DNA of 64,000 nt from positions 7,190 through 71,189 of the forward strand of contig JBDTRK010000001.1 in NCBI GenBank assembly GCA_039931685.1, written 5' to 3'. How positions within the stretch are numbered: position 1 is the first letter of the stretch; each line of letters begins with the position of its first letter. The stretch is from Betaproteobacteria bacterium. Lineage in GTDB: Bacteria > Pseudomonadota > Gammaproteobacteria > Burkholderiales > JACQAP01. Positions 9,948-44,752 of this stretch are shown one piece after another. The position numbers and the translations under genes are program-made. Under the pieces are notes generated by a model. That model searched no databases. It saw nothing but the letters and a program-made list of their open reading frames with translations, and was not told the origin of the DNA.

Positions 9948-10034
9948 CTACTTAAGGGTTGCGCCTTGTGCCGCGAAGCCTGCGGTTCCTGGCATGATCG
10001 CGCCCCGGTAACTGACGATCTAGGGAATGCAAGA

Positions 10035-11465
10035 ATGGGCAAGATAACCGGATTTATGGAGTACCAGCGCCTGACCGAAGTTGCGGAGGACAAGCGCGAG
10101 CGCGTCAAGCACTACCGCGAATTCGTACTTCATCTATCCGATCAGGAGGCCGGTGTGCAGGGCGCGCGCTGCATGGACTGTGGCATTCCGTTCTGCATGA
10201 CCGGCTGCCCAGTCAACAACATCATTCCGGACTGGAACGACCTGGTCTACAAGCAGGATTGGCGGCAGGCGCTCGACGTGTTGCATTCGACCAACAATTT
10301 TCCGGAGTTTACCGGTCGAATCTGTCCGGCACCGTGTGAGGCCGCGTGCACGCTGAACATCAACAATGATCCGGTCGGGATCAAGTCCATCGAGCATGCG
10401 ATCATCGATAAAGGCTGGGAGCAGGGTTGGGTCGTTGCGCAACCGCCCAAGCGCAAGACCGGCAAGAAAGTCGCAGTAATCGGATCGGGTCCCGCCGGCC
10501 TTGCCTGTGCGCAGCAACTCGCCCGCGCCGGGCATGCCGTGGCCGTGTTCGAAAAGAACGATCGAATTGGTGGCCTTCTGCGTTACGGCATTCCCGATTT
10601 TAAAATGGAGAAGCACACCATCGACCTGCGTATGGTGCAGATGCGGGCAGAAGGGGTTGAGTTCCGCACAAATCAGCACGTCGGGCAGAACGTCAGTGCC
10701 AAGGATATTCTGGCTGAATTCGATGCCGTGGCGCTTACCGGCGGTGCGGAAAATCCGCGCGATCTCCCTGTGCCGGGCCGCAATCTGGAGGGCGTGTATT
10801 TCGCCATGCAATTCCTGCCACTGCAGAATAAGGTCGATGCCGGCGATAAGGTTGCGAACCAGATACTCGCGACGGGCAAACATGTGGTCGTCATCGGCGG
10901 GGGAGATACCGGATCGGACTGCGTCGGCACGTCGAATCGGCAGGGCGCAGCTTCGGTCACCCAGTTCGAACTGCTGCCGCAGCCCCCGGAGCAGGAGAAC
11001 AAGCCGCTGGTCTGGCCTTACTGGCCGATCAAGCTGCGCACCTCCTCGTCGCATGAAGAAGGCTGTGAGCGCGACTGGGCGGTGGCCACCAAGGAATTCA
11101 TCGGCGAAAACGGCAAGGTCAAGAAAGTCAGGATTGTCAGAGTCGAATGGAAGGAAGGCAAAATGATCGAGGTTCCCGGGTCGGAGACCGAGATCAAGGC
11201 CGATCTGGTGTTGCTGGCCATGGGTTTTTTGGGGCCGGTGCAAACCGGATTGATCGAACAGTTTGCGGTCGAGAAAGACGCGCGCAGCAACGTGAAGGCA
11301 GACACAGACGGCACGAAAGCTTATTACACTTCGGTCCCCAGAGTCTTCGCCGCCGGCGACATGCGTCGCGGTCAGTCGCTGGTCGTTTGGGCAATTCGAG
11401 AAGGACGTCAATGCGCTCGCTCGGTGGACGAGTTTTTGACGGGCCGTTCGGATCTGCCGCGCTGA
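10035..11465 (+). CDS. gltD: Glutamate synthase small subunit
   Basis: Starts [12 protein letters not shown]. Has Cys clusters and the [10 protein letters not shown] dinucleotide fold. The ORF-track start at 9966 is an N-terminal over-extension. Confidence 0.95.
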
Positions 11466-37999: not shown

Positions 38000-40900
38000 A
38001 TGATGGAACTCGTGCGGGTGGCGTTGCGCCGCCCGTACACCGTAGCCGTACTGTCGCTACTCGTGCTGTTGCTGGGCGGCCTGGCGGTCACGCGCATGGT
38101 GGTCGATTTTTTCCCCAAGATCGACATTCCGGTCGTCTTTGTCGGCTGGAATTACCCCGGCTTGTCCGCCGAGGAAATGGAGCGCCGCGTCGTCATCATT
38201 AGCGAGCGCGCCTATTCGACGACGGTCAATGGCATCGACCGCATCGAATCCAACTGCATTCCCGGCATCGGCCTGGTCAAGGTGTATTTCCACCAGGGCA
38301 CTGACATCGGAGCGTCGATTGCGCAGATCAACGCCATCAACGGCACCATTCTGCGCATCCTGCCGCCGGGCATAACGCCGCCGGTGATTATCCAGTACGA
38401 CCCCGCGACAGTGCCCATCGTGCAAATGGTGTTGTCCAGCAAAACCGTGCCGGAAGGCCGCATCTTCGACCATGCGTTCAATTTCGTCCGGGTAAAGCTG
38501 TTCACCATTCCCGGCCTGGTCGTCCCGGCTCCGTTTGGCGGCCGGCTGCGGCAGGTCATGGTGGACCTGACTCCACAGCTGATGACGGCCAAAGGCGTGT
38601 CGCCTAACGACGTCGTCAATGCCCTGCAAAATTCGAACGTGCTGGTACCGGCCGGTACCGCACGCATCGGTTCGACCGAGTACAACGTCTTGATGAACTC
38701 CAGTCCGCCGACGGTGGACCAGTTCAACCAGATGCCCCTGCGCGTGACAAACGGGGTGCCGGTGCTGCTAGGCGACGTGGCTAAGGTTGCCGACGGCTTT
38801 GCGGTGCAGAACAACATCGTCCATGTTGATGGCCGCCGCGCGACATATCTGACCATTCTCAAGCATTCCGAAGCCTCGTCGCTCGCCGTCGTCGAAGCCA
38901 CTCGCGAACTGCTGCCCGAAATCCAGAAGGCGGCGCCGGATGGCATCGAAGTCAAGCTCGATTTCGACCAGTCTGTCTACGTGCGTGCGGCGATCAAGAA
39001 TGTTGCCGCGGAGGCCGTGATCGCCTCGCTGCTGGTCTCGTTGATGGTATTGTTATTCCTCGGATCGTGGCGCAATACCATCGTCGTGATCACTTCGATA
39101 CCGTGCGCGATGGCGGCCGGTATTCTCGGGCTCTACTTTACCGGCAATACCATCAATCTGATGACGCTGGCCGGGCTGTCGCTCGCCACCGGTATTCTCG
39201 TCGATGACGCGACCGTGGCCGTGGAGAACATCCACCGTCATCGGGCGATGGGGCAGCCGCTCACGGTAGCCATCCTGGAAGGGTCCCGCGAAGTCGCTGT
39301 GCCGCGCACCATGGCTACGCTGGCAATCTGCATCGTGTTCATTCCGGTGGCCTTCCTGTACGGCGTATCCAAGTTCCTGTTCGTGCCGCTTGCCTTGTCG
39401 GTGGTATTCGCCCTGCTCGCCTCCTACGTTCTGTCCTTCACGCTGGTGCCGATGCTGTCGCGCCAGTTGCTGGCTGGCGAACACCACGATGACGGCACCG
39501 GAACGGACATCGGCGCGCGCCTCAATCGCGTACGCGAAAATGCACTCGAATGGTTGCAGAACACCTACGCTGCGGTGCTGACCGTGGTGATGCGCCATCG
39601 CCCGTTTGTGCTGGTCTGCCTGTTCCTGATGGGCGGCGTCAGCGTCTTCCTCGGCCGGGTCGTGGGCACGGATTTCTTCCCGACGGCCGACGTCGGCATC
39701 CTTAAGCTGCATTTCCGCGCGCCCATGGGCACTCGCATCGAGGAGACCGAGACGCTGGTTCTCGCCGTGCAGGACGAAATTCGCAAGATCATTCCCGCCG
39801 CGGAAATCTCGACCATCAACGACATGCTCGGAGTGCCGCTGTTCTTCAACCTTGCTTTCGTGCCCACCGACAATATCAGCGGAATGGACGCCGACATCCT
39901 GATTTCGCTGAAGCATCCGCATCAGCCATCGGCATTCTGGATGCGCGAGCTGAGGGCAAAGCTGCCGTCAAAGTTTCCTGGATCCACCATGTATTTTCAG
40001 AATGCCGATATCGTCACCCAGGTGCTGAATTTCGGACTGCCGGCGCCGATCGACGTGCAAATTCAAGACCAGAACTTCGAGCGCGCGCAAGGTTACGCCG
40101 CGCGGGTGCGCAAAATCATCGAGGAGACGCCGGGCGCGGTCGATGTACGGCAGATGCAGGTGCTGAATTATCCTGCGTTGCGCGTCGAGGTTGACCGCGT
40201 GCGGGCAGCGCGCCTCGGGCTCACGCAACGCGACGTGGCGAACAACGTGCTGACGACGCTGTCGTCAAGTGCAATTGTCAACCCTTCGTATTTCCTGAAT
40301 CCGAACGGCGTGAACTATACGGTCGCGGTGCAGACCCCGATCGAGCGCATGACCTCGGTGGACGATCTAATGGCGACGCCGATAACCACCGGCACCGCGC
40401 CAGTCCTCGAAACGGCCGCCGCCGCCCGCCTCGATGCCGCGCCCGGCGCACCGGTAACCCGGCTATCCAGTATCGCCAGCATCAAACCGGAGACCAGCTA
40501 CCAATCGGTGTCGCATTACACCGTCCAGCGTGTGCTCGACATTGCCGCCAATATTGACGGCCGCGATCGGGGTGGCCTCGGACATCAAGCGCAAGATCGA
40601 CGCGATGACGGCGGAAAAGGATTTTCCGCCGACGGCGAAGATCATCATCCGCGGGCAGTATCAGGTCATGAACTCGTCTTTCGTAAGCCTGATTGGCGGG
40701 CTGCTGCTGGCAATAGTGCTGGTCTATGCGCTGCTGGTAGTGCTTTTCCAGTCCTGGATCGATCCGTTCATTATCATGATGGCGGTGCCGGGCGCGCTGA
40801 TCGGCATACTTTGGATGCTCGCCTTGAGCGGGACGACGATCAACGTCATGTCGCTGATGGGCGCGATCATGGCGGTGGGCATAGGCGTGTCCAATTCGAT

Positions 40901-41231
40901 CCTGATCGTGAGCTTTGCAAACGAATTGCGGGCCGAGAAAAACCTGGGCGTGATCGAGGCGGCGATCGAAGCAGGCCGGACGCGGCTGCGTCCGGTGCTA
41001 ATGACCGCGCTGGCGATGATCATCGGCATGGTGCCGATGGCGCTGGGGCTGGGAGAGGCCGGCGAGCAGAACGCCCCCCTTGGACGGGCCGTGATCGGCG
41101 GGTTGGCGATGGCGACGATCGTCACGTTGTTCGTCGTGCCGGTGATCTATACATTTGTCAGAAAGAGCATGCCGATCCTGCACGAACTCGACGCGCGATT
41201 CGAGGCCGAGTCGCAGGGCCGCCAGGTCTGA
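38000..41231 (+). pseudogene. RND efflux transporter permease, interrupted by a +1/-2 frameshift near 40566-40572
   Basis: N-terminal ~855 aa of an AcrB-like protein are in the frame of 38000. The C-terminal ~220 aa (TM7-12 region, ...VPVIYTFV) are in the frame of ORF 40530..41231. After the junction the first frame turns into Arg/Asp/Gly-rich nonsense. Confidence 0.85.
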
Positions 41232-42502: not shown

Positions 42503-42817
42503 ATGATGATGAATTATCGCGGCATTCACGACATGGGTGGCTTGTCGGCAGGCAAGGTCGAAGCCACCGAGCATGACTACGCGTTGTGGGAAAAGCGCGT
42601 GGACGCACTGATGGTGTTGCTAGCGAAGAAGGGGCATCTGACCGTGGATGAACTGCGCCGGAACATCGAAACACTCGGCGCGGAGGCCTACGACGCGATG
42701 AGTTACTACGAACGCTGGATCTACGCGATCACCCAGACCCTCATCCAGCGTGGCGTCATCACCATTGACGAGCTCGGTACGGGAATCGCGCAAGCCCGGA
42801 TCCATGGCGAAAGCTAA
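42503..42817 (+). CDS. Nitrile hydratase beta subunit N-terminal-domain-like protein (SCNase beta-like)
   Basis: GIHDMGG N-terminal motif, then ...W-E...L...G..T.DELRR..E......YYERW, as in NHase beta N-domains. 104 aa. Confidence 0.8.
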   Translation: MMMNYRGIHDMGGLSAGKVEATEHDYALWEKRVDALMVLLAKKGHLTVDELRRNIETLGAEAYDAMSYYERWIYAITQTLIQRGVITIDELGTGIAQARIHGES

Positions 42818-43109
42818 CTCCACCGCTGCCAGATTCGCCGCTGGCGACCGTGTCGCCGTCCGGGACATCTATCCGCTCGGCCATGTTCGCACACCTTATT
42901 ACATTCGAGGAATGCGCGGCATCGTCGAACGGCTGTGCGGCTTGTACGGCAATCCCGAGGAGCTCGCTTACGCGCGCCCGGGCGTGCCGAAGCAGCCGCT
43001 GTATCGCGTGCGTTTCCTGCAGCGCGACGTCTGGCCTGCCTATCGCGGCGGTGCCGACGATACCGTGGATGTCGAAATCTACCAGCACTGGCTGGAAACG
43101 GACTCCTGA
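42804..43109 (+). CDS. Nitrile hydratase beta subunit C-terminal-domain-like protein (SCNase alpha-like)
   Basis: FAAGDRVAVRDIYPLGHVRTPYYIRG...YRVRF...DVW...VDVEIYQHWLE matches the SH3-like NHase beta C-domain pattern. The ATG at 42804 overlaps the upstream ORF by 14 nt. Confidence 0.75.
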   Translation: MAKANSTAARFAAGDRVAVRDIYPLGHVRTPYYIRGMRGIVERLCGLYGNPEELAYARPGVPKQPLYRVRFLQRDVWPAYRGGADDTVDVEIYQHWLETDS

Positions 43110-43111
43110 CC

Positions 43112-43777
43112 ATGCCGCACGACCACGATCATCCTCACGACCACTCCGATTCCCGAGGCGGCGCCGCGGCACACAAGCATCCGCCTTTGCGCCCGGACCA
43201 GGACGATACCATCACCTACTGGCGTGCCATGGAGATTGCGGTGCGCGGGCTGCTGATCGACAAGGGCATTGTGACGGCGGACGAAATCCGTCGCGCGGTC
43301 GAAGATATGGATGGTCGAACGCCCTTGCAGGGCGCGCGCATTGTCGCCAAGGCCTGGACCGATCCGCAGTTTCGCCAGTTGCTGCTGTCCGATGGCAATG
43401 CCGCATGCCAGTCGTTGGGCATTGACGAGGGCGTCTACAAGCTGGTGGTCGTGGAGAACACGGACGCAGTACACAACGTTATCGTCTGCACGCTGTGCTC
43501 CTGTTACCCGCGTTGGTTGCTCGGCTTGCCCCCCGATTGGTATAAGAGCCGAAACTATCGTTCGCGCGTGATCAACGAACCGCGCGACGTGCTCAGGGAG
43601 TTCGGTACCGAAATCGCGAACGGCACGGTGGTGCGGGTGCACGACTCTACGGCCGACATGCGCTATCTGGTTTTGCCCAAGCGCCCGCCGGGCACCGAGG
43701 GATGGTCCGAGGACAAGCTTGCAGCGCTGGTCACGCGCGACTCCATGATAGGCGTGGCGTTCGCCGGGCAGCCTTGA
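43112..43777 (+). CDS. Nitrile hydratase alpha subunit-like protein, cobalt-type metal site (SCNase gamma-like)
   Basis: VCTLCSCY claw-setting motif followed by PRWLLGLPPDWYKS, plus MRYLVLPKRPPGTEGWSED and TRDSMIGV. His/Asp-rich N-terminus MPHDHDHPHDHSD. ATG lies 2 nt after the upstream stop. Confidence 0.88.
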   Translation: MPHDHDHPHDHSDSRGGAAAHKHPPLRPDQDDTITYWRAMEIAVRGLLIDKGIVTADEIRRAVEDMDGRTPLQGARIVAKAWTDPQFRQLLLSDGNAACQSLGIDEGVYKLVVVENTDAVHNVIVCTLCSCYPRWLLGLPPDWYKSRNYRSRVINEPRDVLREFGTEIANGTVVRVHDSTADMRYLVLPKRPPGTEGWSEDKLAALVTRDSMIGVAFAGQP

Positions 43778-43849: not shown

Positions 43850-44752
43850 GTGAAATCGCCTCGTCTCGAAACGATCAGGAACATCGCCTTGCGCCAGCCG
43901 CGGCGTTTTCAGCCGCCGGCGAAGGGCGAAGTGCTCGTCAACGGCGATCGCCGTTATTTCATCGGCGATGCGATCGGGCAAGGCGGTTTCGGCATGGTGT
44001 ACGACTGCATCGATGACTGGGGCAATCCGCTGGTTGCCAAAATACTCATTCCCCATGAGCAGTCCTACCGCGAAGTGCGCCGAGTCTGGCAGGAGGAACT
44101 GCGCAAGTTGCTGGTCATGCGGCATCCGAACATCACGTTTGTCTATGATGCCTTCGAATACAACGATACCTTCTATCTCATCATCGAGCGCTGCAGCTTT
44201 CCGTTGTCGCAACTGATCACCCGTCTCGGGTTGGATGCGGACCGTTGGATCCCGTACGTTGCCCGCGATGTACTTCAGGCGCTCGACTACATCCACGCGG
44301 CCGGTTACGTGCACAAGGATCTGCATCCCGGCAACGTATTTGTCACGGAACAGCGCCGCAAGCACAGATTGCTCAAGGAACCGGTGTGGTCGTTCAAGGT
44401 TGGCGATCTCGGGCTGACGCGGCTCGAGTCCGATATCCGGGTGTTCCAGACCTTGCTTGCCGACTGGATGCGGCCACCGGAAGCATTCGATCCGGAGAAA
44501 TTTGGCGCCGTCGGACGCCACGTGGATATCTATCAGACCGGCTTGCTGCTGCTGGCGCTGATGCTGAGGGAAATTCCCTATTTCACACGCGAGGAAATTC
44601 TCGGTGGAATTCCCCAGGCGCTGGCCGCCAAGCATGATTCCCGATTTGGTCCAGTCATTGCGAAAGCCCTGCGGCGCCACGTCGAATGGCGCACGCAGAC
44701 CGCACTTGAATTCTGGCGGGAACTGTCGGCAGTGGCCGCGGGCGACGCCTGA
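43850..44752 (+). CDS. Hanks-type Ser/Thr protein kinase, catalytic domain only
   Basis: GTG start. GQGGFGMVY glycine loop, VAKIL lysine, HKDLHPGN catalytic loop, DLG and PPE motifs. 300 aa with no TM or sensor domain. Confidence 0.8.
   Translation: MKSPRLETIRNIALRQPRRFQPPAKGEVLVNGDRRYFIGDAIGQGGFGMVYDCIDDWGNPLVAKILIPHEQSYREVRRVWQEELRKLLVMRHPNITFVYDAFEYNDTFYLIIERCSFPLSQLITRLGLDADRWIPYVARDVLQALDYIHAAGYVHKDLHPGNVFVTEQRRKHRLLKEPVWSFKVGDLGLTRLESDIRVFQTLLADWMRPPEAFDPEKFGAVGRHVDIYQTGLLLLALMLREIPYFTREEILGGIPQALAAKHDSRFGPVIAKALRRHVEWRTQTALEFWRELSAVAAGDA

Follow-up and report, generated by a model that had tools for sequence, protein, structure and literature searches.

In a 64,000-nucleotide window of the Betaproteobacteria bacterium contig JBDTRK010000001.1, three consecutive genes (positions 42503 to 43777) encode a nitrile hydratase (NHase)-family enzyme whose beta subunit is divided over two polypeptides. 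We consider it probable, at roughly 60%, that they make up an activator-independent, heterotrimeric, non-corrin Co(III) hydratase for a small polar or anionic nitrile-type substrate. Judged from its sequence, the enzyme is a member of the cobalt (Co)-type NHase family in the broad sense, lying outside the classical clade and lacking a single beta chain. It belongs to an uncharacterised clade that, on the same grounds, is neither a thiocyanate hydrolase (SCNase) equivalog nor a classical NHase.

Three coupled genes encode a nitrile hydratase-family enzyme with a split beta subunit

The locus comprises three open reading frames (ORFs) and the following features:

42503..42817, + strand: ORF1, NHase beta N-terminal helical domain (betaN; PF21006) as a polypeptide of its own, 104 aa, 11.7 kDa
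42804..43109, + strand: ORF2, NHase beta C-terminal SH3-like domain (betaC; PF02211) as a polypeptide of its own, 101 aa, 11.5 kDa
42804..42817, + strand: 14-nt overlap of the ORF2 start with the ORF1 stop, ATGGCGAAAGCTAA, the same in related loci L001-L004
43112..43777, + strand: ORF3, Co-type NHase alpha subunit (PF02979), 221 aa, 24.7 kDa
43112..43186, + strand: His/Asp-rich alpha tail MPHDHDHPHDHSDSRGGAAAHKHPP, 11 His/Asp in the first 25 residues, presumed metal-binding
43484..43513, + strand: metal claw and pocket residue V125-C126-T-L-C129-S130-C131-Y-P-R134, located by alignment

A preliminary description of this DNA had proposed three ORFs encoding betaN, betaC and a Co-type alpha. All three exist on the forward strand, but the starts of ORF2 and ORF3 needed correction by one base: ORF2 begins at the ATG at 42804 and ORF3 at the ATG at 43112, 2 nt past the ORF2 stop. 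ORF1 opens with MMMNYRGIHDMGG and later contains YYERW, its residues of note being Leu51, Arg52, Arg53, Tyr68, Glu70, Arg71 and Trp72; ORF3 opens with MPHDHDHPHDHSD, followed by HKHPP. The proposed domain identities were confirmed by Pfam matches of ORF1 to NHase_beta_N (PF21006, E 2e-19), of ORF2 to NHase_beta_C (PF02211, E 1.4e-21) and of ORF3 to NHase_alpha (PF02979, E 6e-80), E-values that chance would not produce, together with the claw VCTLCSCY. Instead of one beta chain of ~210-230 aa, the TIGR03888 model found two half-length matches, ORF1 to model positions 2-96 only (69.5 bits) and ORF2 to positions 132-224 only (66 bits). Both scores fall well below the cutoff of 152.2, as one would expect of half a beta.

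The top solved matches of all three ORFs were Co-type NHases, with the SCNase chains 2dd4_B, 2dd4_A and 2dd4_C lower down. For ORF1, 3qxe_B ranked first in the PDB and SCNase beta (2dd4_B) next; ORF2 matched residues 137-226 of 1v29_B as well as SCNase alpha (2dd4_A); and ORF3 matched Co-type NHases at 1e-58 to 1e-70. NCBI names the products 'ScnB-like protein' (ORF1), 'SH3-like domain-containing protein' (ORF2) and 'nitrile hydratase subunit alpha' (ORF3).

Self-subunit-swapping chaperones of NHases are beta-like proteins under 17 kDa encoded just downstream (PMC3511329), and we considered whether ORF1 might be such a chaperone or activator, the mature enzyme then consisting of alpha and betaC. 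Its small size and a weak match to the accessory-protein model TIGR03889 (21.8 bits, E 1.4e-4) would be in keeping with this idea. However, that match is under the cutoff of 46 bits and the beta N-domain models score far better, ORF1 keeps the family-invariant Arg52, Tyr68 and Trp72, and it lies upstream of alpha rather than downstream, making a chaperone role highly improbable.

The beta split is shared by a large group of relatives

Relatives were collected by scanning one genome per species. This yielded 80 loci whose alphas are between 87% and 47% identical, every one of them from a metagenome-assembled genome (MAG); the MAGs belong to Burkholderiales, Casimicrobiaceae, Gamma- and Alphaproteobacteria, Acidobacteriota and Eremiobacterota. 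BetaN and betaC were in separate ORFs in 76 of these loci, over alpha identities of about 87% to about 50%, and fused in none; the remaining four are cut by a contig end or had no detected beta. Contigs with an alpha 79-86% identical carry the same three genes; in L001-L004 the 14-nt overlap recurs with a gap of 1-2 nt, and L005 and L006 have the identical three-gene set. The overlap of ORF1 and ORF2 is a translational-coupling junction conserved in relatives. The preliminary description had noted that an uninterrupted beta gene in orthologues would point to a mutation. As no relative has one, the split is not a mutation but the native state of a large group, and dozens of uncultured bacteria from soil keep the same layout.

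These data also bear on whether the split is a frameshift, a pseudogene or an assembly artefact, a suspicion fed by the frameshifted RND pump gene nearby in the window. Against it, independent assemblies have the same ORFs and the same 14-nt overlap, GC content at third codon positions (GC3) shows a bias of the coding type in both beta halves, and the ~35-residue linker of classical beta subunits is, by alignment, simply absent. Proteins identical to ORF1 and ORF2 are recorded in other collections, and the exact ORF3 protein is found in an NCBI 'Betaproteobacteria bacterium' MAG and a JGI metagenome. We regard an artefact as refuted, with essentially no probability left to it.

At L048:9974-10687, alpha was matched in two ORFs (9974-10687 and 10128-10646), which suggests an assembly frameshift at that locus.

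Intact catalytic residues in a hybrid pocket

Residues were mapped by alignment to references matched exactly to PDB chains, namely 2dd4_C for SCNase gamma and 3vyh_B and 1ire_B for the beta subunit of Pseudonocardia thermophila NHase (PtNHase). ORF1 numbering equals PtNHase beta numbering across the N-domain. The corresponding positions are:

Arginine bonding an oxidised cysteine: ORF1 Arg52 = PtNHase beta Arg52 = SCNase beta Arg91
Second arginine bonding an oxidised cysteine: ORF2 Arg29 = PtNHase beta Arg157
Catalytic tyrosine: ORF1 Tyr68 = PtNHase beta Tyr68 = SCNase beta Tyr108
Pocket tryptophan: ORF1 Trp72 = PtNHase beta Trp72 = SCNase beta Trp112
Third residue after the claw (claw +3): alpha Arg134 = PtNHase alpha Trp116 = SCNase gamma Arg136
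Position before Arg52: ORF1 Leu51 = PtNHase beta Phe51 = SCNase beta Arg90
Position after Arg52: ORF1 Arg53 = PtNHase beta Phe53 = SCNase beta Arg92
Position before Trp72: ORF1 Arg71 = PtNHase beta His71 = SCNase beta Arg111
Further pocket positions: ORF1 Met37 and Ala41 = PtNHase beta Phe37 and Phe41

The claw VCTLCSCY occupies ORF3 residues 125-132 and provides Cys126, Cys129, Ser130 and Cys131. Thr and Tyr in this motif are the cobalt signature, as opposed to the iron type. The Cys-Ser-Cys claw and both beta arginines (ORF1 Arg52 and ORF2 Arg29), whose loss would have spoken against the preliminary description, are kept. Across 75 relatives, Arg52 and Tyr68 do not vary, and Trp72 and betaC Arg29 vary little or not at all. 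By alignment, the catalytic apparatus is intact.

The pocket departs from the aromatic one of PtNHase, with Arg134, Leu51 and Met37 in place of alpha Trp116, beta Phe51 and beta Phe37. Its signatures YPRW, L-R-R and Y-Y-E-R-W are clade-wide and essentially invariant, and Leu51 is present in every member. SCNase beta Arg90, the counterpart of Leu51, is said by Yamanaka et al. (2013) to be the second specificity arginine of SCNase. As read from the alignments, the pocket is a stable NHase/SCNase hybrid with one of the two SCNase-specific arginines and few aromatic residues. Claw +3 has been engineered experimentally, as PDB entry 3vyh_A is PtNHase alpha W116R; the SCNase gamma variant 3vyg_C scored ~3-4 bits under the wild type, which fits the reciprocal change.

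Several of these residues recall a true thiocyanate hydrolase (SCN- + 2 H2O -> COS + NH3 + OH-), here in the form of a compact ScnBAC. Alpha Arg134 matches gamma Arg136, and ORF1 Arg53 and Arg71 match beta Arg92 and Arg111. Three subunits in the order betaN-betaC-alpha, an N-terminus rich in His and Asp like that of SCNase gamma and the NCBI label of ORF1 point the same way. Nevertheless, SCNase beta Arg90 is replaced by Leu51 throughout the clade. Among the 150 best alpha representatives (50% identity clusters), Arg is the commonest residue at claw +3 (~60, with Trp in ~19); the position is otherwise highly variable in NHase relatives (R, W, T, S, L, V, A, K), including fused betaN-betaC-alpha proteins of the type known from eukaryotes. 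In terms of the alignments, Arg134 is a real SCNase-like feature, yet not diagnostic of SCNase. We therefore rejected Arg134 as proof of SCNase, as Arg is the commonest +3 residue in the wider family. Both a split or rearranged beta and Arg at claw +3 are common in environmental NHase relatives, which makes the locus less exceptional than the preliminary description implied.

Other combinations were seen among the relatives. Five Rhodobacteraceae loci (L058, L064, L067, L069, L070) have a split betaN-betaC-alpha with the classical Trp claw YPWPLLGL, so that the split and the arginine are independent characters. A second three-gene order, betaC-alpha-betaN, occurs in MAGs of Alphaproteobacteria and Acidobacteriota (L059-L062, L065, L066, L068, L071-L073, L077, L079). 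Their claw, YPRPV, is that of SCNase, and position 51 of beta is Lys, so that the pocket has two basic residues and comes nearer to SCNase; some of them adjoin genes for alpha/beta hydrolases, a metallo-beta-lactamase-fold protein or cytochrome P460.

Placement outside both the classical nitrile hydratases and thiocyanate hydrolase

ORF3 narrowly passed the NHase-alpha equivalog model TIGR01323 (253.6 bits, cutoff 249.85) and failed the SCNase-gamma equivalog model TIGR03887 (211.4 bits, cutoff 291.45). Identity of the alpha subunit is 42% with SCNase gamma (44% when the alignment is trimmed) and ~53% with Co-type NHases (PtNHase, Bacillus). A neighbour-joining tree was built on 128 alpha domains, and 500 bootstrap replicates were run on 49 taxa, with the following support:

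Classical YPW Co-type NHase clade, with the window protein outside: 85%
Core of the window clade, made up of Burkholderiales: 73%
Window clade and SCNase gamma as sister groups: 0% (0/500)

Eukaryote-type fused NHases formed separate branches in the neighbour-joining tree. Architectures among the alpha relatives (representatives P0121-P0270) included alpha alone and natural fusions, namely betaN-alpha and betaC-alpha (both ~320 aa) and betaN-betaC-alpha (430-560 aa).

Model scores, identities and trees thus speak against an SCNase, as do the absence of a 12-residue insertion of SCNase gamma and of the N-terminal extensions of ScnB and ScnA. A different explanation is an ordinary NHase for neutral aliphatic or aromatic nitriles in which Arg134 and the split are lineage features and the amidase and any activator are encoded elsewhere. 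This would agree with the TIGR01323 pass, with classical Co-type enzymes as the closest solved relatives, with the full set of catalytic residues and with the variability of claw +3, fused proteins included. It sits poorly with the position outside the classical YPW clade (85% bootstrap) and with the replacement of PtNHase beta Phe37, Phe41 and Phe51 and alpha Trp116 by Met, Ala, Leu and Arg.

A His/Asp-rich alpha tail and no linked activator

The His/Asp-rich tail of alpha is kept in 62 of 79 related loci, counting tails in which His and Asp make up >=40% of the first 16 residues, and similar tails are found in many further alpha representatives. It aligns with the SCNase gamma N-terminus, MSADHDHDHDHDHDHK, bearing out a resemblance that the preliminary description had suggested. 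In eukaryotic fused NHases, the beta and alpha domains are separated by a His-rich stretch, which so comes directly N-terminal of alpha (PMC3323583). The tail may plausibly serve to capture cobalt.

Pfam annotation of the neighbourhood covered ~10 kb to either side of the NHase genes as well as further window genes. No gene for an activator or a cobalt transporter was found among these, in line with the preliminary description, which had seen neither next to the locus. No second betaN-like ORF was detected in the window at E<=1e-5, and in none of the lineages examined is alpha followed by a conserved small gene. Where a swapping chaperone would be expected, the gene after alpha encodes a 300-aa kinase. 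A promoter and terminator scan and RNA folding of the spacer between ORF3 and the kinase gene gave nothing beyond shuffled sequences.

A housekeeping neighbourhood

The gene after alpha is:

43850..44752, + strand: stand-alone Hanks-type Ser/Thr kinase, 300 aa, Pkinase domain, motifs GQGGFG, VAKI, HKDLHPGN and DLG intact

In 30 species-level loci, the NHase genes have a kinase gene downstream of them on the same strand. CoA-transferase and MaoC genes stand between the two in about half of the relatives. We rejected the kinase as part of the enzyme system as unproven, since it belongs to a conserved chromosomal backbone and CoA-pathway genes intervene.

The window genes examined are housekeeping genes: a secretin, an HD-domain phosphohydrolase, priA, argS, two dsbA, an aminotransferase, an MFS transporter, argH, Grx4, an RND pump with its adaptor, dsbB, a cystathionine gamma-lyase/synthase-like gene (CGL), CBS, FeoAB and ABC transporters. 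Named neighbours include hemA, prfA, grx4, the RND pump, the kinase, dsbB, CGL and CBS. In relatives, neighbouring gene calls were filtered on GC3 > GC1 > GC2 and then clustered. The backbone in Burkholderiales MAGs reads hemA-prfA-prmC-grx4, a variable acyl-CoA dehydrogenase gene, variable RND and MFP genes and betaN-betaC-alpha, followed by variable genes for a family III CoA-transferase and a MaoC/Ich-like hydratase and then by kinase-dsbB-CGL-CBS.

The family III CoA-transferase gene lies directly after alpha in at least 18 related species (L017, L018, L020-L025, L028, L030-L035, L038, L039, L041). Most of these loci have an acyl-CoA dehydrogenase gene directly upstream and a MaoC/Ich-like hydratase gene after the transferase, on the same strand; examples of the cassette are L021:3738-4922, L034:7366-8541 and L027:7110-7604. 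None of the three proteins (0/3) passed an NCBIfam equivalog cutoff. These CoA-pathway neighbours, present in at least 18 species, are a weak hint of a carboxylated substrate.

No amidase or aldoxime dehydratase gene was linked in any of the ~79 loci, and no nitrile-related regulator was linked among the neighbourhood genes examined. The missing amidase and aldoxime dehydratase, and a setting in a housekeeping backbone rather than a catabolic island, count further against an ordinary NHase for neutral nitriles, which we hold to be possible but doubtful. For a thiocyanate hydrolase, the lack of a linked amidase is what one would expect, as its product needs none. However, COS hydrolase, cyanase, sulfur-oxidation genes and a P15K-like activator were likewise not linked in the genes examined, and, combined with the model scores and trees, this makes a true SCNase unlikely.

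Compared with its 1078-aa orthologue in L001, the RND efflux gene upstream (38000-41231 of the window) carries a frameshift, with residues 1-869 in frame 2, residues 859-1078 in frame 3 and the junction at about 40570-40606; it is either a pseudogene or a MAG assembly error. One MAG, MFD02242.bin.1.57, has two betaN-betaC-alpha copies with a kinase gene, L020 (CAWBMN010000005) and L026 (CAWBMN010000008). The CoA-pathway cassette accompanies one copy only, and the pair reflects either paralogous duplication or mixed binning.

A model for an activator-independent hydratase

In the model that we favour, the three chains would be made in a fixed ratio through translational coupling and would probably assemble into (alpha-beta-gamma)2, by analogy with toyocamycin nitrile hydratase (TNHase) (PMC8574189). 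ORF3 would bind cobalt through Cys126, Cys129, Ser130 and Cys131. As in family members of solved structure, Cys129 would be oxidised to a sulfinate and Cys131 to a sulfenate. ORF1 is predicted to supply Arg52, Tyr68 and Trp72 and ORF2 Arg29, hydrogen-bonding the oxidised cysteines and lining the pocket, so that betaN and betaC jointly would do the work of one continuous classical beta, minus the linker. A dedicated activator is probably not needed, and cobalt would most likely be captured by the His/Asp-rich N-terminus of alpha. The enzyme would hydrate a C-N triple bond. As the pocket is less aromatic and more cationic (alpha Arg134; beta Leu51, Arg53 and Arg71), the substrate may be a small polar or anionic nitrile-type compound, for example a cyano-carboxylate, and not a bulky neutral nitrile.

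Several observations weigh against this model. Every relative found is a MAG, and the clade is known from sequence alone. ORF3 clears TIGR01323 by just 3.8 bits. Arg at claw +3 is widespread and need not indicate an anionic substrate. Genes for an activator or a cobalt transporter may lie in other parts of the genome. The window locus is the RND/MFP variant of the backbone, without CoA-pathway genes, and, as amidase, aldoxime dehydratase and regulator genes are also not linked, gene context says little on the substrate.

A bolder proposal would make the clade a new functional class within the NHase family, a three-subunit Co hydratase that works without an activator and is specialised for an anionic substrate with a C-N triple bond. 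The substrate would then be a thiocyanate- or cyanate-like ion or a cyano-carboxylic acid, and the enzyme would be a core syntenic gene product of an uncultured soil and sediment Burkholderiales lineage. We put this forward tentatively and would sooner bet against it; if true, it would mean a previously unrecognised and widespread environmental route for anionic C-N triple-bond compounds.

Significance

According to reviews, bacterial NHases have two subunits, TNHase being the exception (PMC12648386, PMC3323583). Beta sequences shorter than 200 residues were dropped from a recent phylogenetic survey (PMC10098168), which so could not have seen the split-beta group. In the literature searched, we did not find this clade, its hybrid pocket or its breadth, while the individual parts are already recognised by NCBI. 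A compact, activator-independent NHase, if true, would be useful for biocatalysis, and the hybrid NHase/SCNase pocket offers a natural test of the residues that set the substrate class. Their fixed place among housekeeping genes suggests that the three genes serve an everyday physiological function and are not a catabolic trait acquired from elsewhere. The working picture of the family is unchanged; the locus is a good lead for enzymology, not a new kind of system.

Comparison with known systems

The classical Co-type NHases of P. thermophila (1ire), Bacillus sp. RAPc8 (2dpp) and Pseudomonas putida (3qxe) share with the window enzyme the claw VCTLCSCY and beta Arg52, Arg157, Tyr68 and Trp72. 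They differ in having a single beta of 219-233 aa with a ~35-residue linker, where the window has two genes, and in having alpha Trp116 and beta Phe51, where it has Arg134 and Leu51. Their swapping-chaperone gene lies downstream (PMC3511329), whereas none was found downstream here. The eukaryote-type fused beta-alpha NHases of Monosiga brevicollis and others have a His-rich stretch positioned as the His/Asp-rich tail is here, and a variable claw +3 with Arg in some fused representatives, yet their architecture is the opposite, with everything on one chain.

The closest layouts are those of TNHase and SCNase. TNHase (ToyJKL) of Streptomyces rimosus is an (alpha-beta-gamma)2 enzyme with subunits of 21.2, 10 and 11.4 kDa (PMC8574189), described as exceptional for its three subunits (PMC12648386). 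As in the window enzyme, with 24.7, 11.7 and 11.5 kDa, there are three subunits and the beta function is carried by two chains of ~10-11 kDa, a likeness to ToyJKL that is one of subunit sizes only, not of sequences. The TNHase genes lie in the deazapurine toyA-M cluster of an actinomycete, whereas those described here lie in a betaproteobacterial housekeeping backbone without deazapurine genes; the alpha gene is first in toyJKL, going by the gene names, and last here. According to Nelp et al. (2014), TNHase reportedly needs no activator, and its alpha alone is said to be catalytically competent.

In SCNase of Thiobacillus thioparus THI115 (2dd4), the beta, alpha and gamma subunits are the counterparts of betaN, betaC and the NHase alpha, respectively. 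We take the gene order to be scnB-scnA-scnC; a 2020 review gives it as alpha-beta-gamma-activator. The claw VCTLCSCYPR is identical, including gamma Arg136, the alpha-type subunit has a His/Asp-rich N-terminus in both, and ORF1 Arg53 and Arg71 correspond to SCNase beta Arg92 and Arg111. In contrast, the 12-residue insertion of SCNase gamma is absent from ORF3, and ORF1 and ORF2 lack the extended N-termini of ScnB (157 aa) and ScnA (126 aa), residue 6 of ORF1 aligning with ScnB residue 45 and residue 8 of ORF2 with ScnA residue 34. Beta Arg90 is Leu51 here, a P15K activator gene is not linked, and the two are not sisters in the trees. As far as can be tested, the window enzyme is a member of neither system; it resembles TNHase in layout and subunit sizes, and SCNase in gene order, claw and tail.

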